From the NCBI GenBank assembly GCA_035084275.1, contig CM068754.1:11842001-11906000 (forward strand): 64,000 nucleotides of DNA, written 5' to 3'. The notes under the pieces are model-generated. The model did no database searches. It was not told the origin of the DNA and saw nothing but the letters and a program-made list of their open reading frames with translations. Of the stretch, positions 3,701 through 9,700 are shown piece after piece. Position 1 is the first letter of the stretch. Every line of letters starts with the position of its first letter. Both the position numbers and the translations under genes were made by a program. This stretch comes from Hydrolagus colliei. Lineage: Eukaryota.

Positions 3701-6700
3701 TGTTTGGTACTGCTTGACAATTTAACACTAGTTTCTAGCACAATACTCTAATATGGAAGAATTATTTGGGAAGAATTTGAACCGAGTCTAACGTAAAGCC
3801 CCTCATGGTGTATTGACAGTTACATTGAGCGAGTGCATATGGTCTGAAAAGACTGATGCTGTAATCAGTAGTGACAGCATCTGAGAGACATTGCTCGCAT
3901 CTCGGGTGCACTGTATGCACATCAGATCCACAGAATGAGTTTCCTTATCATTTATTTCATCGCTATTCACTGCCCCTGAGCTTTCTTGCGAGTGAGAAAC
4001 CCGAGGGCGCTGGGCTCCAAAATAAAAATTGTGTTGAGACTACATTCTTTCCTTTCTTTTAATTGTATTCCATGTATTTAAACATACTAATCATACTCAG
4101 ATCATCTATTTACAGAATTCTTAATTGTTACGGAAAACAAAGCATACATGACTCCATTGGAACACATTTAATGGAGCAAGTTCACACTTACATTGACTTG
4201 CATGGACAATTTCAAACGGCGTTTGCTGTAAATAAGATTGCCGTGTGAACCATTCGTAGCATTTGCACACATCTTAAGATTCTGTAGTTTAAAACCACAA
4301 CCAACCCTCTGTTAATCTGTACCGTGTTGAGCAAAATGTTTTAGGCTGCAAGTGCTACAGTGGTTTTTGATGTGAATTGAAAAATGCATGCAAGATCTTT
4401 GAAATGGTGCAAAATGTATTGTTCCATACCTTCAAAAGTTGATTTGGAGTGTAAAGAAAGCAGGTGTGCTTCTGGTTCAGGTAGGTCTCTGTATAATAAT
4501 CATTTTTAAAATTGAATTACGCATTACAGCATTGTATAGATGCACCGATCCATGTCCAAGCGCTCTCCACAAGTTACCCCACCTGCAAATGTAGATAGTC
4601 ATGGCTATATTCTTACACACTCCTGTCCGATAACTGAGCTACATTTCCCAACGCTAAAAGATACCAACTGTCAAAGCAGTGTGATGCCACAAATACATTC
4701 AGAAGTGGCTCATTGTTATAAGTACTCAATCAAAAAGGTATGGAATAATTGGTTTATCCCATGAATTTACGTGAAGGTCCTTCTTTTGTGATTATTTCAT
4801 TCAATTTCTTTGTTGAATAAGAACCCTTACCCATGGGATAACCTCAGAGTAGTTTGCCATCTGTTCTCTGCAAATGTAAAACATCCAAATCACAGGCTAA
4901 ATTAGGAAATTTGTACTTTTACAGTTAAAATCTCACCCCAACTCAATATCTATAATGTGATTTGCGAAGTGCTGATGGCAAGCTGTGCCCTTGACCAGTT
5001 TTAGGGATGTTTTTAGTCATTCAGCCTCTCCTGTTACAGATTCTTCCAATAGTAACTTGTGTTTCTGAATCAGTAACACATTTGTCTAGGGGAAAGGCAC
5101 ATTTTCACTTATCTGCTGGTAACTAAAATTAGTACTTTGAAACTTGTGTTTAGCTGCTGAAAAGCCATTTACTCTAAAAAGCCACTTATTTGCTGTTTAG
5201 CTACAGGCTGCCATTCATCCTCTCAGTTTCAGTAGGATGGTGCCCGTGTCGATTTTGCCATTTAAAATGCTTGTCCTTAGATAATAACCCAGTGGGCACA
5301 AACATTTTCTTGGTACCAAACTGGAATCAATAAGACAGAGGTGACAAACCTGGCGGCAGACTTTATTGTGGCTGGGTAACCCGTCTGTAAGAGGTGAAAG
5401 TGAATAAAATACCTGTAGGTTATATTGATTGATTAAATCCGCTTCACATCTTAGCATTCTCCCTGGAAATCTGACCAGACTTCTACGTCAGTAACCTCAA
5501 ATTTGAACCTAAGTGCTACTTTGGTCAAGTGTATTTGGGTGCCATGGTAAACGAGAAGCTGTGATCATAACTAAGCACCTTGCACTCTCCTCACAACTAC
5601 TCAGCTTGTGATTTTGTGGAGATGTGCATTTCAGTTAAACAAATTTATCTGTTGTTTAACTGTGGACTCGATCTGGTTTAGTTTGTTTGAATTGATTTAT
5701 TTTGATCTACTAGTACTTTAGTGATTTTATATTTAATTTCTCCTCCTCCCCTTCATTTTTCCCCATCCCTTACCCTACAATTATGGTTACATTTTAGGAA
5801 AATCTAAATAGTATATTTCTCAACATCGTTGTTAAAGTGTAAATTTTGTTTTCTCACATCACTGTTAGATTCTCTTCAAACTTGGTCGGGTGTTTTGAAA
5901 ACTTTCTTTCAAACAAAGACAATTACTATTATTTCCATTCAAAACGATGATCCCTTTATTTCTCTGGAAATTAAAGGATTTTATTCAGAGTCAGGTCATT
6001 GCTAGGATTTATTACAATACAGGACTAAACATTTAATTTGATCGTTGATTAGCGATGTTTACATATTCATATTTTGCTGGTGTACCACAGAAGAAAAGCC
6101 AGGGTTATTTCTCTCCTTCCCTCAACCTTCAAAGATACATCCAATCTTACTTCTTTTTTTGGGAAACTTTTATGAATTTCATAAGTGTGGTGTTGTTGAT
6201 GTTACTGAGCCAGGGCCATGTAATGTTGGAAAAATACATGAGTGACGGAGAATTGAAAATGCTTTGTGTGTGTGTGTGTTCTATTGAATAATCGTAGAGA
6301 CAGAGCACTCGTGATTTTTTTAAAAATCCTGAAGATCTCTGCTTGAGTTTCTGTTGAAATATGGTTGTAAAGGAGCAATTTCCAGATATTGATATTGCTG
6401 TTTATTAGGTCCATCGTGGCATACCAGCCTGCTGGGGTGAACACCCACAAATTTGATGTTTCTGCCATGTTCAAGTCATTTGGCATATTCCTGGGAATAT
6501 TTAGCGGCTCCTTTGCAATGGGAGCTGCCACTGGAGTGGTGACTGCTCTAATATCCTTTATCTGTTACTTCTGTTAAGAGTTCCTTAATTTAACTGCAAT
6601 CATTTGAATGAAGAGTCTTGTATTATTTTTTCTTTGTACCTGTGTGTTTTTTTAATATAAAATATTCCTGAATCTGAATTTTGTTAACTTATAATCTGGA

Positions 6701-9700
6701 ACCACCTTCAGGTTTCTTACATATTACCTTCCTTGTAAAAAAAAAGAAAACTGATTACTTGACTATTTCCACATGTGTTTTATTTAGTGCTTTTCAGAAG
6801 CTATTATTAAATTTTATAAAGACAATATGATATGTTGCAGCTCATACTGCAGACACTGAGAAAGCAGCCTTGATCTATAATACGTTGGTGCTCTAAAAGT
6901 TTGTAGGATTCAGTGACACTGTATGGCTTTGTTCCAGTGATTTTTTCAAATGATCTTGGCTTTGTCTACAGAACGAAGTACTGAGCAGAACCACTCTCCC
7001 CAAAAGCACAAAGGGACCAAATGTCGAAGGCAGTTTGCACTGGGCTGCTCTTTTGCCTCACATCAAATTTGCTCTTTAGAAGATTTACAGAAAATGACTT
7101 TGATAAATTCCACTTCCAAAACTTACGAGATTTATTCAAAAGTTTGGAGTATTAATGTGTGTTTTCTCCCCAAATTTTAAAAAAAGATATTGCGTTCTAT
7201 TCCAAATTGATTTCATCTTAAATCTTTATGTCTCACCCCAATTATAGGCTTACATAGAATGACTGTTGCTTTCAGAAAATTAATTTATTGTAAAATAAAA
7301 ACATATGGGAACTCTAAATTCCTGATTTTATATGTGGAACAGAAAATAAATATGTTTAATATCTGTACATATAATGTGACCTGTTGCCAATGCTCCAACT
7401 ACTGTAACCAGCATGAAGGCTGCCAGACAAATGCAGTTTATTTATTATTTAATTTTGAAAGATCTGCTGGTTGATTTTACTTAACAATCTGTGCATGTTA
7501 CAAAATTTACAAAGTTAAGAGATTTCCAGTTGCTGGAAACTGCACTTTTCTTCTTGATGTCGTGGAGTACTTTCCTGTTGGCTGAAGCATGTGGATTTAC
7601 AGGTGGGTGTGGAGCAGTCAAAGTTACAAAAAGTATATGTTTACCGGAAATGAATTTATATCTCTTTAGATCAGGCAAGACAACATGAGTTTGAACAGCT
7701 TATTTAATTCAACAAGCTTGCTTTTTACCTGTGGTAGTTTGGGACATGTGCATGCGACCACCGAGAAGGTAGAAGGCGAACTAGTTGGTCGTTGGTCTTT
7801 TTTCGTCTAGCATTGCTTATGTTTTTAGGAAATCTATTTGCAAAATAACAAATATATAGGGAATGATCAATATTTCAGGAAATAACACGATTTTGCCCAC
7901 AAAGTACACAGTACACAGTCAATCTACATTACATTATATTCTGTGAAACAGTTTGAGATATTTTGTCGACGAGATAAGACACTATATCAAATGCAAAAAT
8001 TATTGTTGACCAGGCAAACGCAATATTAGGAAGTATAAATTACCTAATCACTAAAATCATGTACATGTAGTGTACAAATAATCCTGTGTATTTGAACCTA
8101 AGGCAAATATTAACTTAATTGCTGTTTGGTACCATTTTACAGTATTTTACATGTTAGTCAAAATAAAAAATTATTCAAGATTTATTTAAACTTACAATGC
8201 AAAAGAGAACCAGACAACAGAGATGGATTACTATTTTCCTAGAGCAGGATTAAAATCCTATTTAGCACAGTCACTTAACTCTGCTTATTTTAACGTGGTG
8301 AGAATGCAATTTGTATTACTGCCAGTTTTGCTGCCCAGTGAAAAGGTTCAGCATTGACAGGAAGGCATTTGTAAATGTTAAACTGCAAATCCCTGATGTG
8401 TTTTGCAATTGCAGTCGGACAGAAGCGGCAGGACATGGTGGCTGCCCCGGGGAGATGATGCCCTGACATGCGCTGACAATGTTATTTTAAGGGTTATCTG
8501 CTTGCGCAAACATTGATTTGGCTGAACAGGGAACTTGATGGCCAGTTGCTATCAGCCTTAAGTAATGTAGGCAGCTCATGGTGTTTATTGCTGCATTCCA
8601 GGTGTTGTGGCTGTGCTGTTCTGTGGAATCACACAGGCTCACTATACATACAACAACTTGTCACCAGAATCCAGAATCCGAACCAAACAGGTGAGACACT
8701 GTGCCAAGCTGTGCATTTCAAAATGTTTGTTAGAGACAGAGGAATTGTAGCATCACATACTGTTTTTCTGTTTTTTCTTTTATCAAAATGGCATAATGCA
8801 GAATGTCATAAGAGCACGGAGATTAACAATTGTTTTGGACTATTGTTTAGAACTGTGTATGTAAATCTTGCGTCCCTTTGAATTCTTAATAGGAAACCAT
8901 GCATTTCAATAGAAAATGTTATTTCTGTGTTTATTATCTTCAGCTCAAATATATTTCTACGTCTAATTTGCAATTCAATGCAAAATACCGCACTTCTTTG
9001 TTAACAAGCCAGTATTCTACATTTTACGGAATTATTCCCGTATGCAGTAATTTTATAACACGTTTTCAACAAGTAAATGCTCCCTATCCTCTGTTACATT
9101 GTCTTCTGTTGGGATCAGTTTAAAAATTCTACTGTATTTTCAGTCTATGTAAACGCTGCATTGAATTAGACCCAGTGTTTTAGTCTGCAGGCACTTTGCA
9201 TTAAATAGACTGTTTCTGTCCTTGTGACTTTCGACTGAGTCTGTGCAAAATGGTTTTGCAATATGGTTGACTGATGTACACATTCAAGCAATTAAAACAA
9301 TTGTCCAATGCTTAGGTGTTACAAATACCAAGTGTTGTTTACTGTTATGTTGCTTTGCATGCGATTTGAGAGATTTCATCATCCATAAGCAGTGTCACTG
9401 TTGGTTAATCCACAAAGTAACATGGACAATTATCTTAGAAATAGTGCAGCCCTTTAACAAGGGTTTCCATTAAAAAATCAAAAAAAATACAACAAAAAAA
9501 GTAGCAACTGTCTGGGATGGGAATGGAAAAATGGAGGAGAGTTAATTGCGTAAGTAAAAAAAACCATAAGATTGGATTTCTCTTATTGTCACTTGTCATC
9601 AACAAAAGGCGTTAAAAGGATTTTGTGATGGCAGAAGGATTGAACATTATATCTGATGACCTTTGTTTTAGTTCAACCATTGTATGGGTAAATGTACTCT

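Follow-up and report, generated by a model that had tools for sequence, protein, structure and literature searches.

Lin 2010 (PMC2831892) described a U12-type AT-AC intron common to Drosophila Nhe3 and human SLC9A7, and human and mouse SLC9A genes with three U12 introns have been reported (PMC1557818). In the catalogue of Larue and Roy (PMC10639083), AT-AT introns number 701, or 0.95% of conserved animal minor introns, against 16,044 AT-AC introns, and only 4 are listed in plants. Here we analyze a 64,000-nucleotide (nt) stretch of the genome of the chimaera Hydrolagus colliei (hereafter the window), which holds the 3′ two-thirds of the sodium/proton exchanger gene SLC9A6, encoding endosomal NHE6, and within it a U12-type intron with AT...AT ends. 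This intron occupies the same position, after ...TAL, and has the same donor, ATATCCTTT, as the AT-AC intron of SLC9A6, SLC9A7, SLC9A8, and Drosophila Nhe3, but unlike the AC of that intron its last base is T; as in human and mouse, the chimaera gene has three U12 introns. We think it likely that an ancient AT-AC intron of the NHE6/7/8 genes acquired a terminal T, probably by deamination of a methylated CpG dinucleotide, and that it is spliced by the U12 machinery at the predicted position 7496 with little effect on expression.

AT-AN ends are known to splice productively (Sheth 2006, PMC1557818; Alioto, PMC1635337), and non-canonical ends often splice with reduced efficiency (Turunen, PMC3584512). 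The AT-AT junctions of human IK, KCMF1, ERCC5, SMC3, and HNRNPLL are each covered by thousands of reads across 16 tissues (PMC4176328). Together with those of TCTN1, UBR3, and SRSF12, these make up eight human AT-AT introns with the same termini and U12 signals as the chimaera intron (PMC4176328); they are annotated with direct RNA sequencing reads, whereas the chimaera SLC9A6 intron is known from genomic sequence and protein models. Within the exchanger family, the intron that is AT-AC in human SLC9A8 is AT-AT in mouse Slc9a8 (PMC1557818, Table 3), a lineage-specific AC-to-AT switch in an intron that, by position, is most likely homologous to the one described here. Because that switch concerns a different paralog in a different lineage, it is an independent event; chimaera SLC9A8 keeps AT-AC|C (the bar marks the exon border). 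In the files searched, the list of non-canonical introns in PMC4176328 does not include human SLC9A6, suggesting that the human intron ends in AC.

On the genomic evidence, the chimaera intron is to be regarded as a real AT-AT U12 intron and a new instance of a catalogued subtype. It points to no new splicing chemistry and has no shown regulatory role. For evolution, it is a further, independent switch from AC to AT, in an intron that dates back to the insect–vertebrate split, and the AC|G paralog of this genome serves as a control.

Gene identity and intron structure

Joined by their coordinates, 11 SLC9A6 exons of the window encode 448 residues (aa) without a stop codon, of which 444/448 are identical, in a gap-free alignment, to RefSeq Callorhinchus milii XP_007890886.2. 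The gene is closest to NHE6, not NHE7 or NHE9, and SLC9A7-, SLC9A8-, and SLC9A9-type genes are separate and lie on other contigs (the SLC9A7 type on C6, the SLC9A9 type on C18). The exons on either side of the AT-AT intron align to adjoining residues, 301–347 and 348–382, of the solved NHE6 chain.

The coordinates of the intron signals are collected in Table 1. Only two copies of ATATCCTTT occur on both strands of the 64 kb, one of them placed directly behind the last base of an NHE6 exon; this rarity, the exact placement, and the consecutive NHE6 residues across the junction argue that the donor is not a chance match. Near the other end, the predicted branch site lies within a branch-like stretch, TTTTACTTAAC (7475–7485), whose second A is 7484; either A of a U12 branch site is usable (PMC3584512). 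The intron ends 12 nt past the branch A, and a polypyrimidine tract is absent. Donor, branch site, spacing, and the U12-type character of the homologous introns together place 6551–7496 in the U12 class. In 11 of the 12 U12 introns examined in this genome, the distance from branch A to intron end is 10–15 nt, SLC9A7 being the exception at 20 nt.

Every acceptor between 7486 and 7524 was translated and compared with the NHE6 protein, and only the one at 7496 yields NHE6 without gain or loss of residues. Between 7 and 16 nt past A7484, only one dinucleotide opens with A, namely the AT at 7495–7496. The RefSeq Callorhinchus model uses this same junction, VVTAL then VTKFTKL. The intron is assigned to the non-canonical AT-AT subtype from its genomic termini at an unambiguous junction, any shift of which changes the protein.

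These results bear out part of the initial annotation, which had named the gene SLC9A6 (as its identity to RefSeq Callorhinchus NHE6 confirms), called the intron U12-type (in line with the full donor match, the one-mismatch branch site, and the U12-type homologs), and placed the acceptor at 7496 to give VVTAL|VTKFTKL, noting that the next AC (7500–7501) would shift the frame, as we confirm. Its description of AT-AT as a rare variant likewise agrees with the catalogued frequency given above.

Table 1. Coordinates of the SLC9A6 intron, its signals, and the other U12 introns located (window positions unless a contig or locus is named)
Feature	Position	Strand	Basis or remark
SLC9A6 coding exon upstream of the intron, ending ...VVTAL; intron phase 0	6409..6550	+	47 aa identical to Callorhinchus NHE6 proteins
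U12-type intron, 946 nt, AT...AT termini	6551..7496	+	Donor, branch site, protein-defined junction
U12 5′ splice site ATATCCTTT, full match to RTATCCTTT	6551..6559	+	Consensus per PMC1635337
U12 branch site TTACTTAAC, 1 mismatch to TTCCTTRAY; predicted branch A 7484 (or 7483)	7477..7485	+	
Non-canonical 3′ end AT; T7496 the derived base, putatively from the C of a former C|G	7495..7496	+	
Downstream SLC9A6 coding exon, starting VTKFTKL, first base G	7497..7602	+	Protein homology
Nearest AG, in frame, 30 nt from branch A	7513..7514	+	Splicing here would remove 6 conserved residues; no sign that it is used
Second U12-type intron of SLC9A6, GT-AG, 379 nt	10043..10421	+	Branch TTCCTTGAT 14 nt from end
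Third U12-type intron of SLC9A6, GT-AG, 1566 nt	12973..14538	+	Branch TTCCTTCAT 14 nt from end
KCMF1 U12 intron, 2279 nt, AT-AT|G	G000:C1, L062, donor L062:4063	-	As in human
IK U12 intron, AT-AA|G	G000:C19, L058:5374-5804		

Ancestral end of the intron and origin of the terminal T

In this genome SLC9A7 has AT-AC|G and SLC9A8 has AT-AC|C at the homologous intron. Metagenome contigs were scanned by pattern for the same intron, which gave 32 loci, comprising 13 with AT...AC ends (9 of them near-identical insect-like copies), 1 in which just an AC end is visible, 1 combining an AG end with a U12-like branch, 2 in which the intron has become an ordinary GT-AG one, 11 without the intron, and 4 chance matches (L014, L022, L026, and L030), which contain no NHE exon and were rejected. 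No AT end was found at the homologous intron among the 32 loci, and 14/14 of the AT-AC-type introns end in AC; 4 loci have AC|G, including the SLC9A6-type L011, whose downstream exon peptide is that of the window. By comparison of these sequences, AC is the ancestral end of the NHE6/7/8-family intron. Since a Val codon comes next, the ancestral junction would have been a CpG, in agreement with the initial annotation, which had taken AC|G as the starting point and which the SLC9A7 intron and the AC|G metagenome homologs support.

The proposed course of events starts from two observations: that, in an intron with U12 donor, branch site, and AT end, only the 7496 junction restores a gap-free NHE6, and that homologous introns end in AC, with AC|G where the exon begins with Val. 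Observed/expected CpG ratios are 0.21 for the intron and 0.44 for the gene, and the TpG values are 1.3–1.5; low CpG with raised TpG is the usual trace of germline methylation. Methylation of the AC|G CpG in the germline, followed by C-to-T change, would produce the present end; the mirror G-to-A change would replace a Val that all the correctly spliced models examined retain. Recognition of the intron would be by U11 and U12 jointly, through the full-consensus donor and the branch site, and, as the literature suggests, the machinery would set the 3′ site by distance from the branch and tolerate any base after AT...A. With its position set by distance and its last base tolerated, T7496 could have drifted to fixation as a near-neutral change. 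We regard the CpG route, which the initial annotation had proposed, as the likely origin of this intron end, judging from the AC|G context and the CpG depletion.

Introns that are AT-AT in human or mouse (PMC4176328; PMC1557818, Table 3) were also read in this genome, with UBR3, SRSF12, CUL4B, and Zc3hdc6 left out. KCMF1 is the other AT-AT intron found in this genome, likewise AT|G; its Drosophila counterpart is AT-AC (PMC2831892), and the AT-AT end was either conserved across jawed vertebrates or arose twice. The remaining introns end AT-AA|G in IK, AT-AC|G in GPAA1 (vs. AT-AT in mouse; PMC1557818, Table 3), AT-AC|T in ERCC5, and AT-AC|A in SMC3, TCTN1, and an hnRNP L-type gene. For the eight annotated human AT-AT introns, the first exon base (+1) was deduced from the junction residue, MIDB exon ends (PMC6717393), and the direct-repeat column of Parada (PMC4176328), giving G in KCMF1, SMC3, and HNRNPLL, a base other than A in IK and TCTN1, and A in ERCC5, SRSF12, and UBR3. 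U12 exons in general favor A at +1, with G less frequent than C or U (Kwon 2023, PMC10853781).

The SMC3 (L067) and hnRNP L-type (L078–L079) introns end AC|A here, and their human counterparts in SMC3 and HNRNPLL are AT-AT with G deduced next. This contrast fits opposite-strand decay of what may have been one ancestral CpG. The hnRNP locus is nearer to hnRNP L than to LL.

Several points weigh against the reading of T7496 as a decayed CpG in a U12 intron spliced at this position. The ancestral AC is read from paralogs and metagenome homologs, not from shark or other chimaera intron ends, and splicing at 7496 is a prediction from protein homology and from a RefSeq model whose own evidence is unseen. 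A genome search for a U12 small nuclear RNA gene gave no match among the 43 of 63191 candidates scored, in a run that detected no positive control and is neutral on this point. The A following the ERCC5, SRSF12, and UBR3 introns means that a CpG origin is not required for an AT-AT end, and the excess of G at +1 is weak (4/7 AT-AT introns including that of SLC9A6; p 0.03–0.13 for assumed backgrounds of 0.2–0.3). Finally, 9/9 UniRef Callorhinchus NHE6 models run through the U12 donor (6551–6580) and lose VTKFTKLRD. Because the same read-through affects 43 of 66 homologs in a wide range of vertebrates (unspliced genomic open reading frames among them), we attribute it to a common annotation error, of the kind that gene finders usually make at AT-AC-type introns. 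Of the other homologs, 21 have the correct junction, all of them starting the next exon with Val, and 2 differ otherwise.

The alternative that survives best accepts a real intron spliced at 7496 but has its AT arise by ordinary substitution unrelated to CpG methylation, possibly via AA. It draws on the three human introns read as AT|A, on the IK intron, whose ends are AT-AA|G in this genome, AT-AT in human, and AT-AA in mouse (PMC1557818, Table 3), and on the similar abundance of AT-AA (823), AT-AG (658), and AT-AT (701) introns in animals, suggesting that the last base changes freely. For SLC9A6 we nonetheless consider this origin unlikely, since the ancestral context deduced here is AC|G in a CpG-depleted region, and C-to-T change at methylated CpG is the commonest point mutation in vertebrates.

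For the AT-AT class as a whole, the case for CpG decay is suggestive, not proven. That methyl-CpG decay at AC|G, to AT|G or AC|A depending on lineage, is a main engine of the animal class seems to us possible but rather doubtful. If true, it would help account for AT-AT introns being frequent in animals (701) and nearly missing from plants (4), and a clean natural test case would be offered by chimaera SLC9A6 together with its AC|G paralog. No paper on a CpG origin of AT-AT ends or on this chimaera intron was found in a literature search whose reach left out most subscription papers and several supplements; the accessible parts of PMC11347168, PMC6865273, PMC6239176, and bioRxiv 10.64898/2026.10.16.759739 hold no passage on AT-AT ends.

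Splicing efficiency and authenticity of T7496

The initial annotation had further suggested that the AT-AT ends and the imperfect branch site could make the intron rate-limiting, and one may ask if they form a selected rate-limiting step for NHE6 expression. Such a role would accord with the reduced efficiency of non-canonical termini and the proposal that U12 introns are rate-limiting (PMC3584512), with the raised retention of introns having one-mismatch branch sites under SMN loss (PMC8848931), and with the presence of T7496 both in the window and in run X7 (see below). However, a branch mismatch is ordinary: at least one (one or two) is present in 8/12 U12 introns read in this genome, and the mouse and human branch sites of the ATATCC intron of this gene score 57.9 and 76.3 in MIDB and lie further from consensus than the chimaera site (PMC6717393). 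The two other U12 introns of SLC9A6 could limit expression equally, the human AT-AT junctions are used constitutively, and human and mouse disagree at over half of their non-canonical introns (PMC1557818), which fits drift. Nothing singles out the 6551–7496 intron as rate-limiting, and the suggestion, which we find quite improbable, is unsupported. Taken together, our analysis indicates that the intron probably splices normally rather than as a control switch, and that the AC-to-AT change was probably near-neutral.

The base at 7496, which the initial annotation had wanted checked in reads, was compared in four runs, of which X7 spans the site, X6 stops at 7464, X2 covers only the SLC9A7 paralog, and X12 has no coverage. 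In X7 (study P4, a relative or other individual), one contig covering 7219–7574 at a depth of 3.7 carries T at 7496, independently of the source assembly. Over this contig X7 departs from the window in two places only, with a substituted base at 7333 and one base missing at 7486, and it differs at many other positions of the intron, which marks it as an independent source. X2, a second sample of the same organism from another study, contains 126/126 sampled words (1.00); by hand arithmetic, there is a ~3% chance that the sample missed 7496 altogether (31 of about 1190 words cover the site). An assembly error or a private heterozygous variant in a truly AT-AC intron would be in keeping with support from a single contig of that depth rather than from the source sample's own reads. 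Since the T recurs in X7, from another study and with differences elsewhere in the intron, and since X2 contains every sampled word, we judge such an error or variant very unlikely.

The X7 gap at 7486 would shorten the branch-to-end distance from 12 to 11 nt; at this depth, the gap may itself be an error.

Use of another acceptor, either the in-frame AG ending at 7514 or the AC ending at 7501, both of which are present in a class of introns where alternative 3′ sites are common (PMC4176328), is just as hard to credit, because they lie 30 and 17 nt from the branch A, beyond the 10–15 nt of 11/12 introns, and because the codons at the exon start still encode VTKFTK exactly as in human NHE6 and are retained in the RefSeq model. 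Protein alignment and branch spacing led us to reject the AG at 7514 and any shifted junction.

Gene models, paralogs, and neighboring genes

The AT-AT junction at 7496 has a practical use in correcting gene models, as the UniRef Callorhinchus NHE6 entries are without part of a conserved segment.

Among the homologs, the SLC9A7 intron (L002, 1354 nt) has a best branch-like site with 2 mismatches, located 20 nt before the AC end and followed by a pyrimidine run; in these features, its branch region stands apart from those of the remaining U12 introns examined. For SLC9A9, no copy of the intron was located: the downstream exons of that gene lie at G000:C18:18.575–18.580 Mb, and the flanking exons are absent from the 250 kb upstream. 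In three invertebrate-like homologs from the metagenome contigs (L016, L025, and L005), the intron is now an ordinary GT-AG intron (67–69 nt) or has a U12-like branch site followed by an AG end.

Downstream of SLC9A6, the window contains an FHL-type LIM gene (47900–52200, + strand). Further on, a minus-strand coiled-coil exon at 60660–60870 (within about 57600–61400) presumably belongs to a MAP7-family gene, which it resembles. We take the order SLC9A6, FHL-type, MAP7-like to agree with SLC9A6-FHL1-MAP7D3 of human Xq26.

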